The notes under the pieces: model-generated | The model's input: only the letters and a program-made list of their open reading frames with translations | Told to the model about the DNA's origin: nothing | Databases searched by the model: none | Shown: piece after piece, positions 4,570 through 6,324 of the stretch | How the letters are laid out: each line of letters opens with the position of its first letter | Numbering within the stretch: position 1 is the first letter of the stretch | Program-made: the position numbers and the translations under genes | Virus record (IMG/VR): IMGVR_UViG_3300020041_000054 | Location: 1-6,324 of that record | Length of the DNA stretch: 6,324 nt | From: a virus | Reading direction: 5' to 3' (one strand)

Positions 4570-4874
4570 TTTCTATCAGTAAAATCAAGTTCCATACGAC
4601 GAGGCTTGCGACCACGAGCAAAGGAAATATGAACAAATGTGCGATATTTTATAAATTGGTCGAAAGTAAAAGGAGAATTCTTGACAATCGAAATAAACTC
4701 GTCAATCGAAAGATCAACAGGTTTAAGGTCAATGGCATCTCCGGTCAGATGCTGAGAATTCTTAGAACCATTACACGCATCATTCTGTGCTACAGTCCGG
4801 AAAGCGGAAGTAACAGTAAAATGAATATTCCGGCGGAGAAGCCAATCAATAAAAAGCATTAATCCTGGATTCAT
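4566..4874 (-). CDS. Compact M15-family (LAS-type) zinc peptidoglycan peptidase, putative endolysin
   Basis: 102-aa ORF. TSAFRTVAQNDACNGSKNSQHLTGDAIDL carries the S-x-H-x3-G-x-A-x-D / H-x6-D zinc-ligand motif (H42, D49). FVHISF supplies the third ligand (H82). The RTVAQ...H-TGDAID pattern resembles, from memory, phage M15 cell-wall peptidases such as the T5-type L-alanoyl-D-glutamate peptidase. No N-terminal signal peptide is evident. Confidence 0.8.
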   Translation of the reverse strand: MNPGLMLFIDWLLRRNIHFTVTSAFRTVAQNDACNGSKNSQHLTGDAIDLKPVDLSIDEFISIVKNSPFTFDQFIKYRTFVHISFARGRKPRRMELDFTDRK

Positions 4875-4877
4875 GAC

Positions 4878-4967
4878 TTACGAAAATATTTGAGAAATAG
4901 ACGTAAGAAGACTAACAGCAGCTGCAATAATTGCAGACCAAATTTTAGATTTAGTTTCACTCTTCAT
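4878..4967 (-). CDS. 29-aa single-pass transmembrane peptide (holin-like / membrane-anchor candidate)
   Basis: Not in the ORF track because it is too short; found by manual translation. ATG 4967..4965 to TAA 4880..4878 gives MKSETKSKIWSAIIAAAVSLLTSISQIFS. It has a Lys-rich N-terminus followed by an uncharged hydrophobic stretch of about 20 residues. It ends 3 nt before the peptidase ATG and is in the same frame as the peptidase. Confidence 0.4.
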   Translation of the reverse strand: MKSETKSKIWSAIIAAAVSLLTSISQIFS

Positions 4968-5130
4968 TATAATTAAATTTAAAAGTTGAACAATAAGAAA
5001 CAATAAGAACACAATCCTGGTGAAGATTTAAAGAAACGAAATCAGAAATTTCGTCAACAGGTACAAGAATGGTTTCATTCTTATTAGGATTAGTCTTCGA
5101 CTGAACAGAACACAAATAATACTTTTCCAT
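4957..5130 (-). CDS. 57-aa hypothetical protein, first ORF after the promoter
   Basis: Manual translation from ATG 5130..5128 to TGA 4959..4957 gives MEKYYLCSVQSKTNPNKNETILVPVDEISDFVSLNLHQDCVLIVSYCSTFKFNYNEE. It is the first ATG downstream of the predicted promoter and has an AT-rich leader like the other genes. I recognise no motif. Its 3' end is shaped by a 10-nt tandem duplication (see findings). Confidence 0.35.
   Translation of the reverse strand: MEKYYLCSVQSKTNPNKNETILVPVDEISDFVSLNLHQDCVLIVSYCSTFKFNYNEE
4989..5008. repeat. Perfect tandem duplication, 2 x 10 nt (aacaataaga on the plus strand, ttcttattgt on the gene strand)
   Basis: Read directly: 4989-4998 is identical to 4999-5008. 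The unit length is not a multiple of three, and the repeat lies inside the 57-aa ORF. Confidence 0.9.
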
Positions 5131-5174
5131 AAACTTAAAAATTTAAATTAGACATTGTTTTTTTAAAGACAGAG

Positions 5175-5207
5175 CAAAGATATAAATAAGAATTTGAAAA
5201 AAACAAA
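5175..5207 (-). promoter_or_regulatory. Bacteroidetes-type promoter (-33 TTTG / -7 TAnnTTTG) for the whole gene array
   Basis: On the minus strand, TTTG lies at 5207..5204 and TAtcTTTG at 5182..5175, separated by 21 nt. This matches the published Bacteroides sigma-AB consensus as I recall it. The site sits in an extremely AT-rich stretch about 45 nt upstream of the first ATG (5130). No experimental support. Confidence 0.5.
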
Positions 5208-5242
5208 TATGAGCATATATTATTAACATTAAAAAACAATAA

Positions 5243-5540
5243 GCTATACGGGTGGCAGGCTGGTCTGTGAGTTTGCGTCTATAAGACAAGGAGGAGACTG
5301 AAAGCGATGAGGTAAATCGCTTTCCCTTCGGGCAAACTCATGTAGGCTTCGCCAATTTATATTTTAGGTGTTTAGCGGCGACGGCAGAGAGGAGCTCTCC
5401 AGGAGATTGCCTACGCGTTGCAAGCGTCAAGTTTTTAGGATGGCAGTACTATAGCCTAACGGCTCTGATTCCAGTCGACGAGTCTCCCGGAATTCAGTAG
5501 GTGTATAACCACGCTACGCGCGGTTGCCGGAAGTTACTCC
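5243..5540. other. GC-enriched, ORF-free, helix-dense noncoding element (candidate complementary-strand origin or structured ncRNA)
   Basis: Hand count gives 145 G+C in the 280 nt of 5251-5530 (about 52%) against 18 in the 110 nt of 5131-5240 (about 16%). No ORF of 60 aa or more lies within 5131-5523 on either strand. Two perfect 9-bp helices are nested: 5268-5276 with 5332-5340, and 5300-5308 with 5316-5324. Further helices are 5342-5347 with 5409-5414, 5349-5353 with 5377-5381, and 5465-5472 with 5489-5497. Strand and molecule (DNA or RNA) are unresolved. Confidence 0.5.
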
Positions 5541-5578
5541 AAAAAAACAAAACCCGGCGCGTATCACTACGAACCGGG
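5541..5578 (-). terminator. Rho-independent terminator downstream of VP2
   Basis: On the minus strand, the stem CCCGG (5578..5574) pairs with CCGGG (5557..5553). Inside it are a 2x2 internal loop, a 4-bp inner stem (5571-5568 with 5563-5560) and a 4-nt loop. The hairpin is followed immediately by UUUUGUUUUUUU (5552..5541). It starts 24 nt after the VP2 stop codon (TAG, 5604..5602). There is no T-tract on the plus-strand side. Confidence 0.7.
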
Positions 5579-5601
5579 ACAAAAAAAACTACAAACAAAT
5601 A

Positions 5602-6324
5602 CTAACGCTTAGTAGAAATAACCCTATGAGGCAAGAAATTACCTACAGTATTACCAATACTAGTACCATATCCGACCCATTTATCAGCATCATAATACTG
5701 ATACCTTTTCTTTTCATTTCTAGAGCGATACCATTCCTCAATATTCTTGCTTCGAGCATTGTCCTGAGGAAGACCAAGTCTTAGCTCCTCATTATGATAA
5801 GCGGCAGAAGATTGATTAGCCGCAATATTAGCGGCAATTTGAGACTCAGCAATACGAGAGGCAACCTTATTAGAAATATTCTGACCACGCGTACGAGCAG
5901 CTGCCAAAGCTTCTTCAGCTAAAGCCTTTTTAGCTTCAGCATAAGAAAGATAGCCAGAAGACATACGCTGGTAGTAGTCCGCAGCCTTAACGTTCAAATC
6001 AATCTGTTGCTGTTGGTCAAGATACTTATTCATAATACCTTTAGCCTCATTGTCAAGAAGCATACCAGAACGTTGAGCACGCATAATAAGACCTGTCATT
6101 GCCATATTATCAGCTTCCTGTTGCTCCTTAGCATAACCAAGCTGAGCACGCGCCAAACCGGTAGACCTCAAATAATTACGAGTCTCATCAGTAAGTTTAC
6201 CCCAATCAATATCAGAAAGGGTTTCCATAGCTTTAGCATCAGCGAGCTGTCTAGCACCTTGCAATTGAGATTTTTCAGATTGCATCAACTCGTATTGGAA
6301 TATGTTACCAATGGAAGAACCTAT
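5602..6324 (-). CDS. VP2: VP2 minor capsid / DNA pilot protein, C-terminal part; the last 121 nt duplicate window bases 1-121
   Basis: The tracked ORF 5602..6288 stays open to the window edge. 6324 is the first base of a codon, and the frame matches the 487..1 segment after subtracting 6203. The C-terminal region is long, Ala/Gln-rich and probably helical (AEEALAAARTRGQNISNKVASRIAESQIAANIAANQ), as in other microvirus pilot proteins. Confidence 0.85.
   Translation of the reverse strand: MGSSIGNIFQYELMQSEKSQLQGARQLADAKAMETLSDIDWGKLTDETRNYLRSTGLARAQLGYAKEQQEADNMAMTGLIMRAQRSGMLLDNEAKGIMNKYLDQQQQIDLNVKAADYYQRMSSGYLSYAEAKKALAEEALAAARTRGQNISNKVASRIAESQIAANIAANQSSAAYHNEELRLGLPQDNARSKNIEEWYRSRNEKKRYQYYDADKWVGYGTSIGNTVGNFLPHRVISTKR
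6204..6324. repeat. Terminal direct repeat, copy 2 of 2; duplicate of bases 1-121
   Basis: Exact 121-nt identity with the start of the window. Base 6203, the last before the repeat, is the last unique base of the circle. Confidence 0.95.

Follow-up and report, generated by a model that had tools for sequence, protein, structure and literature searches.

What is known of the first replication step, from single-stranded to double-stranded DNA, comes from coliphages and not from the abundant Bacteroides gut microviruses. The sso elements of rolling-circle plasmids, which are 150–300 nt in length, are orientation-dependent, independent of the Rep/dso pair and horizontally exchanged. Complementary-strand priming sites of phages G4, St-1 and alpha3 carry mini-hairpins of the forms GCGNAGC and GCGNNAGC, the ssiA signal of RSF1010 carries a CCGAAGG mini-hairpin, and such mini-hairpins are nuclease-resistant and poorly bound by SSB (PMC13037366). 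Within the microviruses, the intergenic hairpins of reekeekee- and roodoodooviruses are conserved, show compensatory substitutions and have been proposed to be where the negative strand is started (PMC9865509).

Here we analyzed a viral DNA stretch of 6,324 nt (the window), which represents a circle of 6,203 nt and a terminally redundant stretch of 121 nt, and whose minus strand carries all of its long genes. Its main intergenic region harbors an element of approximately 300 nt that, with moderate confidence, we read as a cis-acting folded ssDNA on the T-rich strand and a candidate complementary-strand origin for a host factor. The kind of element is already known and the family is not previously described; our literature search found no description of this element or of antisense-packaging microviruses.

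Location and parts of the element

The gap at 5131–5601, for which a preliminary description of this DNA had seen no plausible gene, indeed contains no ORF longer than 48 aa; the short ORFs present are disrupted by indels in relatives, and the 'hypothetical protein' annotated across the element in Dulem virus 257 is not conserved among relatives. The compositional contrast noted by hand count is also real, with a G+C content of 51.3% in 5243–5540 beside 16.1% in 5131–5242, and 40.1% overall. The parts of the region, from the spacer to the terminator-like hairpin of the pilot-protein (VP2) gene, are as follows.

5131–5242, minus strand: AT-rich spacer, 16% G+C, outside the folded element
5207–5204 and 5182–5175, gene strand: promoter-like boxes, −33 TTTG and −7 TATCTTTG, 21 nt apart
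5243–5261, minus strand: conserved GC-rich flank, plus strand reading GCTATACGGGTGGCAGGCTG, no structure assigned
5262–5344, minus strand: domain 1, in which helix H1 encloses hairpin H2 and the mini-hairpin CCC-GAA-GGG (5324–5332, minus strand); present in the window's lineage only
5345–5353, minus strand: mini-hairpin GGC-GAA-GCC, which contains GCGAAGC and was found by motif scan
5354–5365, minus strand: AT-rich linker between the domains, an insertion hot spot
5366–5497, minus strand: domain 2 core, consisting of a 5' box, two hairpins and a bulged 8-bp stem
5366–5383, minus strand: conserved 5' box of domain 2, AGGTGTTTAGCGGCGACG
5413–5416 with 5424–5427, minus strand: hairpin ACGC/GCGT of domain 2
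5453–5464, minus strand: hairpin AGCC-GTTA-GGCT of domain 2
5465–5472 with 5489–5497, minus strand: bulged 8-bp stem of domain 2, with a variable arm on top
5498–5540, minus strand: near-invariant module, reading GGAGTAACTTCCGGC-AACCGCGC-GTA-GCGTGGTT-ATACACCT
5541–5578, minus strand: terminator-like hairpin of the VP2 gene (on the gene strand, hairpin 5578–5553, loop GTGA, and then a T-run at 5552–5541)

On the gene strand of the window, the element lies 3' of the terminator-like hairpin and its T-run and 5' of conserved promoter boxes, in keeping with its earlier placement between the VP2 terminator and the promoter. As RNA of the minus strand, the VP2 hairpin folds with −15.8 kcal/mol (z −3.05), and relatives carry compensatory variants of it, such as CCCGG/CCGGG to TCCGG/CCGGA; it was missed by a consensus terminator scan due to a loop of more than 8 nt, and was revealed by a separate fold. 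On the presumed packaged strand, this hairpin forms the upstream boundary of the element. The TAnnTTTG box in the spacer is kept across relatives, with variation at the nn positions, and we read the spacer boxes as a putative gene-strand promoter on the basis of what we take to be the Bacteroides consensus (a TAnnTTTG −7 box). The GC-rich flank at 5243–5261 is kept in most relatives of the same lineage and replaced in two (L002 and L004).

Comparative evidence for the fold and its strand

Compared to shuffled controls, the single sequence gave z −1.3 for the plus strand and z −2.2 for the minus strand when folded as RNA, and z −2.35 and z −3.06, respectively, when folded as DNA. By this measure, the folding energy departs only modestly from that of the controls, and strand choice is impossible from z-scores alone. 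RNAalifold folds of the two strands differed, were partly spurious and had near-equal energies, and were dropped. We assembled a structure from covarying pairs in a MAFFT alignment, using a covariation filter that was tightened after a loose one proved noisy. The resulting 52-pair structure is 96.4% paired over 76 distinct homologues, as compared to 27–46% in slid controls, and includes 15 pairs with changes on both sides, a result matched by none of 500 shuffles. This comparison argues strongly for a conserved structure.

All helices listed in the preliminary description are found in the window exactly as written, and three of them hold up across the 76 homologues: helix A (here H1, 5268–5276 with 5332–5340) is 98.8% paired and nearly invariant, the 9-bp hairpin that it encloses (H2, 5300–5308 with 5316–5324) is 99% paired and shows a G-C to T-A exchange in 34/76, and the bulged helix (5465–5472 with 5489–5497) shows a T-A to C-G exchange in 25/76. 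Three further hairpins, not listed before, are also backed by the comparative data. The other proposed contacts fared less well. Helix B, thought to abut helix A, is contradicted by changes at 5346 and 5347 that are compensated at 5352 and 5351, within a local mini-hairpin, and not at 5410 and 5409, and the helix that it was said to enclose (5349–5353 with 5377–5381) is unsupported across the 76 homologues. The 4-bp arm is intact in only 12/76, the three-way-junction detail is not conserved either, and the pseudoknot between 5481–5487 and 5293–5299 is intact in 26/76. The cUUCGg tetraloop register suggested for the plus strand suits one hairpin and the other three need a triloop register; indeed, when the small hairpins are read as c(UNCG)g on the plus strand, CCCTTCGGG is the only one that fits, and covariation confirms the triloop register elsewhere. 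A possible GAGAG/CTCTC helix (5388–5400) was 73% paired and is considered unproven.

The small hairpins share a defined loop. The minus strand of 5243–5545 carries four C-GNA-G or C-GNNA-G mini-hairpins, with cores CCGTTAGG, GCGTAGC, GCGAAGC and CCGAAGG, and the plus strand carries none; the shuffle mean is 0.12, and none of 5000 shuffles reached four. Over 12 divergent variants, the count was 40 on the element (minus) strand versus 1 on the other. GNA loops differ among members at N only: the loop at 5324–5332 is GAA, GTA or GGA, and that of the module is GTA in 63 members, GAA in 33, GCA in 6, GGA in 2 and GAAA in 1. Pairing in the stems is maintained by exchange, since both inner pairs of the mini-hairpin at 5345–5353 covary (G-C to A-T in 24/76, C-G to T-A in 12/76), and in the GNNA hairpin (5453–5464), whose loop has the form G(N)1–2A, each of the three inner pairs shows compensatory changes. 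We note that GNA triloops form in RNA as well.

The alignment also distinguishes between the strands. On the minus strand, pairing of the ACGC helix reaches 98.4% only by virtue of T·G, which takes the place of C-G in 26/76 and 37/76; the same substitutions would be C·A mismatches on the plus strand. The module hairpin, of 8 bp (5507–5514 with 5518–5525) closed by the GNA triloop at 5515–5517, has a G·T wobble (5521/5511) in 76/76 sequences, and the adjoining pair covaries in the divergent lineage. When one weak helix is excluded, G·T pairs amount to 155 on the minus strand versus 15 on the plus strand. The G·T wobbles and mini-hairpins, together with the polarity described below, point to the minus strand acting as DNA.

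The module is found in every member and is 100% identical over 44 nt in the otherwise unrelated Dulem virus 262. Its sequence conservation makes it the probable recognition or start (priming) site, and we propose that domain 1 and the variable arms may be accessory. The TAGCGT hexamer, put forward as resembling CS-6 of ssoA, is present on the gene strand at 5516–5511, but its T occupies the variable central position of the GNA loop, where more than 40 members have A, C or G, so that the resemblance carries no weight.

Distribution, polarity and possible role

The element is present in approximately 114 distinct microvirus contigs. A sensitive blastn search with 5131–5601 against 50,697 phage records returned 16 faecal microvirus records only, with no coliphage matches. 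Some contigs exceed one genome in size: four of these (L057, L061, L080 and L090) have direct self-repeats, as would be seen in concatemers or in assemblies of mixed strains, and three (L091, L134 and L135) have no self-repeat. Matches in L037, L120 and about 16 metagenome loci were chance matches to a short pattern, with no profile hit, and were set aside. Conserved blocks are 92–99% identical to the window and domain 1 is 95.5–99.2% identical, versus 74.7% at Rep third codon positions. Insertions in the linker, seen in seven contigs (L003, L023, L025, L027, L032, L038 and L045), bring in extra GC-rich modules of 60–150 nt, most of which add a GNA mini-hairpin of their own.

A second lineage lacks domain 1 and shares domain 2 at 75–85% identity; there, the element lies between the Rep gene, directly 3' of it, and the next gene, and is probably transcribed as well. 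Domain 2 is 82–85% identical between the window and two members of this lineage (L105 and L128), whereas their Rep proteins show no significant similarity (22% identity, E = 0.12) and differ in size (569 aa versus 378 aa). Conversely, the Rep of L136 is 59% identical to that of L105, yet the element is absent. Both domain-2 variants are found in both lineages, which implies at least two transfers, with polarity kept each time. Judged by these comparisons, the element is decoupled from Rep phylogeny and is exchanged horizontally as a cassette, and its occurrence in lineages with unrelated capsids and Reps would indicate that its partner is supplied by the host and not by the phage.

Of 114 contigs, 112 have the minus version of the element on their T-rich strand; a palindromic misassembly and a 1.6-kb fragment are the two exceptions. 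If 'sense' refers to the plus-strand version of the element relative to the genes, the element is antisense in 73 contigs to genes with T-rich third codon positions (T-A skew of about +0.5), and in 8 second-lineage contigs it has the same sense as genes with A-rich third positions (skew −0.27 to −0.63). Orientation follows the T-rich strand and not gene direction, a correlation that comes from two deep lineages, perhaps two or three transfers, with a chance probability of approximately 0.1–0.25. In ssDNA phages, the packaged strand becomes enriched in T (PMC3278643), and from composition we infer that the T-rich strand is presumably the packaged one. In the window phage, the minus strand is both the T-rich and the gene-sense strand. 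The lineage with all major genes on the A-rich strand includes mar45, mar40, mar49, L038, L105 and L128, and Sigmofec 4510 and Dulem 214 are among its relatives that lack the element. Element-free second-lineage relatives carry clusters of GNA mini-hairpins in the intergenic region after Rep, on the T-rich strand only, and these may be analogous elements. Tentatively, since we hold it to be somewhat short of probable, we suggest that the element marks the strand that is displaced and packaged, or sets it together with a nearby nick site, and that the cassette was installed in a lineage whose major genes lie on the A-rich strand and which would package the antisense strand.

As a complementary-strand origin, the element could work in the following manner. 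On entry into a Bacteroides cell, the circular single strand would be coated by host SSB, and the element would fold into SSB-resistant hairpins, namely the four very stable C-GNA-G/C-GNNA-G hairpins and the longer stems, as a structured landmark. A host priming enzyme may recognize this landmark and make an RNA primer, candidates being DnaG alone, which serves G4, St-1 and alpha3, RNA polymerase, which serves M13 and ssoA, or the PriA primosome, which serves phiX174, and host polymerase would extend the primer to yield the double-stranded replicative form. Of the three functions suggested previously, this one, an origin folded in the packaged strand, is the best supported, by orientation, GNA mini-hairpins, G·T wobbles and the decoupling from Rep; its CS-6 argument and part of its fold did not stand.

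Alternatively, the near-invariant module could be a rolling-circle plus-strand origin, with a Rep binding and nick site that chooses the displaced strand, either alone or with a complementary-strand origin in the remainder of the element. A nick site would yield an orientation locked to strand composition, and the 44-nt identity between unrelated genomes recalls the shared origins of phiX-like phages, which have a 30-nt origin in common, and of CRESS Reps, whose divergent proteins share a nonanucleotide; the location directly 3' of the Rep gene in the second lineage fits as well. We nevertheless judge it unlikely, since the module is common to phages with unrelated Reps and absent from L136 despite its closely related Rep, and its sole loop, a GNA turn of 3 nt in which the middle base is free to vary, would make a poor nick-site loop. 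The best match to the phiX 30-nt origin (taken as CAACTTGATATTAATAACACTATAGACCAC) in the whole genome is 18/30, which is at chance level. We note that the data do not discriminate between a complementary-strand origin and a nick site for Rep within this module.

Some other role of the packaged ssDNA that does not involve priming, for instance as a signal for packaging or condensation, as a contact for capsid or pilot protein, or as a site of nuclease or SSB exclusion, would draw on the same strand, polarity and mini-hairpin evidence as the complementary-strand origin. We know of no packaging signal in Microviridae apart from the origin, and sharing across unrelated capsids and Reps points to a host partner; we regard such a role as improbable, even though the resistance of mini-hairpins to nucleases and their poor binding of SSB would suit it (PMC13037366).

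It is similarly improbable that the element is an independently transcribed structured ncRNA, as had been proposed, or a 3'-UTR-derived RNA acting on host or phage. Covariation, a multi-domain fold and GNA/GNNA loops, which occur in RNA also, would be expected of an RNA, a sigma-70-like match is present on the plus strand (5194–5223), and in the second lineage the element is inside the gene-strand transcription unit. However, cmscan of both window strands against Rfam returned nothing at E ≤ 1, ARAGORN found no tRNA or tmRNA, and no conserved promoter is present, sigma-70 matches being at chance level (2 versus 1.5 expected) in a host that uses Bacteroides-type promoters. Furthermore, the minus version follows a terminator and is co-directional with the genes in the window's lineage and is antisense to them in the other, so that no single transcription logic fits, and an RNA model leaves the link between orientation and composition unexplained.

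Lysogeny of element-bearing relatives in Bacteroides is real, as L102 and L118 are true integrations in Bacteroides chromosomes. Their junction repeat, CAATATCAGGA(G/T)(A/T)ATGTTTAATATAA, maps to the AT-rich spacer, with the GC-rich element intact in both, and the CAATATCAG half of this repeat is absent from the window. Although these two integrations and the known use of dif-like sites by Bacteroidetes microviruses (PMC3091885) make an attP site or host-derived segment conceivable, this very improbable reading is largely refuted, since two scans of 185,579 species-representative bacterial genomes for the module and domain-1 patterns revealed no true copy (a single match in a Terriglobia coding region is due to chance), and in the L118 provirus the 26-nt junction repeat lies in the spacer, with the GC-rich element internal, intact and not duplicated at the junctions as a dif-like attP would be.

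If the element is a complementary-strand origin, it offers a bounded candidate with a 43-nt core and mutable predicted loop bases, which makes the question testable, and a potential part for ssDNA vectors or phagemids in Bacteroides. The occurrence of GNA mini-hairpins both at enterobacterial phage and plasmid priming sites and in unrelated Bacteroides phages would argue for a general start-site mark on SSB-coated DNA. Comparing the element strand with the codon third-position skew gives a simple assignment of the packaged strand in metagenomic ssDNA genomes, and it was this orientation test that exposed a lineage with genes apparently antisense to the presumed packaged strand.

Comparison with known systems

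The element has no sequence-level match to any characterized oriC, ssi or sso element, and its likeness to them is one of organization and motif. Among the closest systems are the oriC regions of G4, St-1, alpha3 and phiK, which, like the element, are noncoding, intergenic in a microvirus, composed of several hairpins and located on the packaged strand (presumed for the element). G4 oriC has GCGAAAGC and St-1 and alpha3 have GCGTTAGC (PMC13037366), for which CCGTTAGG, GCGTAGC, GCGAAGC and CCGAAGG are the counterparts here, and the G4-type mini-hairpin motif occurs four times in the element, where 0.12 would be expected. In each case the reader would be a host factor, and both could move between phages. 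Blastn over the 50,697 phage records showed no sequence similarity between them, and the element is larger (about 300 nt and two domains, with a Bacteroides host) than the G4-type oriC (about 140 nt and three hairpins, with an enterobacterial host).

The ssiA and ssiB signals of RSF1010 can be likened to the element in that they are hairpins active only as ssDNA and in one orientation, and the CCGAAGG mini-hairpin of ssiA is that found at 5324–5332 of the window (PMC13037366). The ssi signals are, however, about 40 nt long and read by the plasmid-encoded primase RepB', whereas the window phage encodes no primase. The sso elements (ssoA, ssoT, ssoU and ssoW) are, like the element, structured noncoding cassettes decoupled from Rep; they are known from Firmicutes plasmids and depend on RNA polymerase, and the CS-6 hexamer of ssoA is not conserved in the element.

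The phiX174 primosome assembly site and the M13/f1 minus origin have the same proposed job, the conversion of ssDNA to dsDNA by means of a folded intergenic signal, but the former is recognized by PriA and consists of one hairpin of about 55 nt, and the latter is a promoter mimic. Helix H1 reads TGAGTTTG, which agrees at 7/8 positions with the presumed Bacteroides −7 box TAnnTTTG; a partner −33 box was not found, and domain 1 is absent in the second lineage. Finally, the intergenic hairpins of reekeekee- and roodoodooviruses are one or two in number, simple and confined to single clades (PMC9865509), whereas the element described here is multi-domain, has a defined loop motif and an orientation tied to composition, and crosses lineages.

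Genome layout and distribution of the element

The window comprises a 6,203-nt circle and a 121-nt terminal repeat, and its minus strand, which is T-rich and presumably packaged, carries all real genes. As the preliminary description had stated, the gap that follows VP2 holds no plausible gene: its longest ORFs are at most 48 aa, and are disrupted by indels in relatives. The contrast in composition was also confirmed, with 51.3% G+C in 5243-5540 (the element) versus 16.1% in 5131-5242 and 40.1% overall.

Features of the window (minus is the gene strand)
4569-2860, minus: Rep
2835-988, minus: major capsid protein
969-487, minus: scaffold
about 460, across the origin, to 5602, minus: pilot protein VP2
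5601-5131, minus-strand order: gap, after VP2
after the gap in minus-strand order, minus: 57-aa ORF, then peptidase
5131-5242: AT-rich spacer, with gene-strand boxes TTTG (5207-5204) and TATCTTTG (5182-5175)
5262-5344: domain 1 (helix H1, hairpin H2 and one small hairpin)
5345-5353: second small hairpin
5354-5365: AT linker, with insertions of 60-150 nt in relatives
5366-5497: domain 2
5498-5540: near-invariant module; 44 nt are 100% identical to the otherwise unrelated Dulem virus 262
5541-5578, gene strand: terminator-like hairpin and then a T-run, which close the VP2 gene

Sensitive blastn matched the region to 16 GenBank faecal microviruses, and a pattern derived from its most conserved part matched 46 IMG/VR and 79 metagenome contigs, mostly of about 6.2 kb and from human gut. 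Removal of chance matches with a profile filter, and of duplicates, left 114 distinct element-bearing contigs. Rfam and ARAGORN gave no match, and no copy was found in 185,579 species-representative bacterial genomes, where host homology had been suspected, by either of two pattern scans; the lone match, inside a Terriglobia coding region, was due to chance. The element is thus a conserved family confined to microviruses. Relative to the window, 43 genomes with a mean Rep identity of 81% were 74.7% identical at Rep third codon positions, 87.6% over the whole element and 92–99% in its conserved blocks.

Five metagenome contigs (L057, L061, L080, L090 and L107) exceed one genome, several with direct self-repeats; they look like concatemers or mixed-strain assemblies, and L107, in which both strands bear the element, resembles an inverted duplication, so that their lengths should not be taken for genome sizes. 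In Dulem virus 257 (L002:1463-1666), a GenBank 'hypothetical protein' (XCD03224.1) spans domain 1 and part of domain 2; its reading frame is not kept in the window or other relatives, and it is probably a spurious gene call.

The AT linker is an insertion hot spot, with GC-rich additions of 60-150 nt in seven relatives (L003, L023, L025, L027, L032, L038, L045). One inserted module, TCACTTAGGCG...GGGGTCGCAAGCGAC, is recurrent, and in most of the seven the added sequence includes a GNA mini-hairpin (a small hairpin of the form C-GNA-G or C-GNNA-G) of its own. A direct repeat, AGGTGTTTAGC and AGGTGTATAAC (TA[A/T]ACACCT on the minus strand), marks the two ends of domain 2 (5366-5376 and 5499-5509); in its first copy the two variable positions shift jointly from T..T to G..A; the repeats could be a protein binding site or a tertiary contact.

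Fold, loop motif and strand polarity

Single-sequence folding energies were only moderately unusual compared to shuffled controls. The deviation was larger for DNA (z = -2.35 for the plus and -3.06 for the minus strand) and smaller for RNA (-1.3 and -2.2, respectively); since the sequence by itself does not settle the question, comparative data were required. We thus specified a structure of 52 pairs and checked it against 76 distinct aligned homologues. In this structure 96.4% of cells are paired, versus 27–46% in controls with partners displaced by one to three columns, and 15 pairs changed on both sides, versus 6.0 in shuffles (none of 500 matched the observed value), so that relatives do display the covariation that had been sought.

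All helices proposed in the preliminary description exist in the window exactly as described, and three have comparative support: H1 (its helix A) is invariant, H2 (its inner 9-bp hairpin) changes from G-C to T-A in 34 sequences, and the 8-bp bulged stem 5465-72/5489-97 from T-A to C-G in 25. Support extends to the module hairpin, to AGCC/GGCT and to GGC/GCC, where double changes number 24 and 12. Three other proposals are not supported: helix B, since changes at 5346 or 5347 are compensated at 5352 or 5351, and not at 5410 or 5409; the 4-bp arm, intact in 12 of the 76 sequences; and the agtctcc/ggagact pseudoknot, intact in 26.

On the minus strand of 5243-5545, four hairpins (CGC-GTA-GCG, AGCC-GTTA-GGCT, GGC-GAA-GCC and CCC-GAA-GGG) have a G-N-A or G-N-N-A loop closed by C-G, while the plus strand has none; the shuffled mean was 0.12, and four were reached in none of 5,000 shuffles. 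The plus-strand cUUCGg reported earlier was discarded as a signature, the UNCG reading being suited to one hairpin out of four. Loops of the module hairpin are GTA (63), GAA (33), GCA (6), GGA (2) and GAAA (1), with G and A fixed and the middle base free. In 12 divergent variants, inserted modules included, the T-rich-strand version carries 40 mini-hairpins versus 1 on the other. GCGNAGC and GCGNNAGC are known, from the work of Hirao and colleagues, as DNA mini-hairpins of extraordinary stability, and SSB binds them poorly (PMC13037366).

Wobble pairs show the same preference. In all 76 sequences one pair of the module helix is G·T as read on the minus strand and A·C as read on the plus, and the neighbouring pair covaries in the divergent lineage; in the ACGC/GCGT helix, T·G replaces C-G in 26 and 37 of 76. 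Altogether, G·T cells number 155 on the minus versus 15 on the plus strand, one weak helix being excluded.

In the window lineage, the plus version of the element is antisense to the genes, whose third positions are 52% T and 14% A. In a second lineage (mar45, mar40, mar49, L038, L086, L105, L113, L122, L128) it runs in the same sense as the genes, whose third positions are 29–52% A and 14–16% T; the third-position T-A skew is negative in all these contigs (-0.27 to -0.63). The plus version lies on the A-rich strand in 112 of 114 contigs, the exceptions being a palindromic misassembly and a 1.6-kb fragment. Since third positions of known ssDNA phages are T-rich on the packaged strand, through C-to-T change in single-stranded DNA (PMC3278643), the minus version always lies on the strand with the composition of a packaged strand, in either gene direction. 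The two lineages have nothing else in common at the nucleotide level, and both domain-2 variants are found in both, indicating at least two transfers, with polarity retained each time. Three independent observations, namely polarity, loop motif and wobbles, point to an element that acts on the minus strand as DNA.

A-rich coding strands characterize a broad microvirus lineage (L006, L007, L008, L038, L086, L105, L113, L122, L128, L136-L141), with capsid proteins 31–55% identical to that of L105, third positions of 29–55% A and 10–24% T, and whole genomes of 36–45% A and 16–22% T. This composition is opposite to the NNT bias that characterizes known ssDNA phages, and suggests that the lineage packages the strand antisense to its major genes; we found no description in the literature of a microvirus lineage with A-rich coding strands or antisense packaging. 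The post-Rep 'intergenic' region of L136 (Sigmofec virus UA08Rod_4510; 4855-5239, minus strand of the locus) apparently holds a pair of small ORFs on the T-rich strand, and upstream of the second is AAGGAGG, which resembles a Shine-Dalgarno site; this hints at an ambisense layout. Element-free second-lineage relatives carry other GC-rich post-Rep segments (L136:4756-4782 and 5355-5391; L139:4694-4835) with 4-5 C-GNA-G mini-hairpins, including CGCGTAGCG, on the T-rich strand only, suggesting analogous elements of different sequence.

Candidate functions and integration

The finding is real, and the first hypothesis of the preliminary description, a complementary-strand origin, is the best of its three, although the fold has been corrected and the evidential basis is different. 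We lean towards this reading because of the placement on the presumed packaged strand, outside the transcription unit, the SSB-resistant mini-hairpins and the exchange as a cassette. DnaG, RNA polymerase or PriA could be the host enzyme, among which sequence cannot discriminate.

A Rep nick site within the module would be compatible with such an origin, but seems unlikely. Domain 2 is 82–85% identical between the window and L105/L128, yet their Reps (569 aa versus 378 aa) show no significant similarity (22% identity, E = 0.12), and L136 lacks the element despite a Rep 59% identical to that of L105. This loose link favours a host factor rather than Rep as the recognizing partner, and a complementary-strand origin is hence ranked above a nick site.

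An RNA, the second hypothesis, accounts poorly for the data: in one lineage the minus version comes after a terminator, in the other it runs antisense to the genes, no Rfam family matches, and no conserved promoter was found for the element, sigma-70-like matches being at chance level.

The third hypothesis, an attP or host-derived segment, is not supported for the GC-rich element, as no bacterial copy was found in the genomes scanned and the crossover lies elsewhere. In L118 (12.1 kb, both junctions) and L102 (from a 34.8-kb contig), a relative of the window phage lies beside the same bacterial genes, which encode a universal stress protein, 89–91% identical to Bacteroides proteins, and a TPR/SH3 protein; such relatives are integrated in Bacteroides chromosomes. 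The flanks carry a 26-nt direct repeat, CAATATCAGGA(G/T)(A/T)ATGTTTAATATAA (L118:about 1685-1710 and 8187-8212; L102:about 5900-5980). Circular relatives have this repeat within the AT-rich spacer, at a distance of some 60-90 nt from domain 1; the GC-rich element is intact within the provirus, and is ruled out as the place of crossover. The window itself has only a diverged right half, AGAATTTGAAAAAAAC, at about 5190-5205. These data are in line with the dif-like integration known from Bacteroidetes microviruses (PMC3091885).

The spacer also holds a -33 TTTG and a -7 TAnnTTTG, 21 nt apart on the minus strand (5204-5207 and 5175-5182); the signature is kept across the lineage, with nn of the second box differing among relatives. 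These boxes could form a Bacteroides-type promoter, in agreement with the host shown by the prophage flanks.

Relation to known origins

Functionally, the element is closest to the G4, St-1/alpha3, ssi and sso signals, but is not a sequence member of any. Mini-hairpins of this type lie at the sites of complementary-strand priming in G4 (GCGAAAGC) and St-1/alpha3 (GCGTTAGC), and RSF1010 ssiA contains CCGAAGG (PMC13037366). Sensitive blastn revealed no similarity to coliphage origins, a phiX-type origin was not found, and the element belongs to no Rfam family. The TAGCGT previously likened to the CS-6 hexamer of ssoA is not conserved, and overlaps a GNA loop whose middle base is free. The idea of a negative-strand origin is not new, since conserved intergenic hairpins have been proposed for this role in other microviruses (PMC9865509). 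The element is a well-defined candidate origin for phages that dominate the ssDNA phages of the human gut; as far as our literature search found, what is new is the family, its mini-hairpin signature, the modular exchange between lineages and the tie to strand composition.
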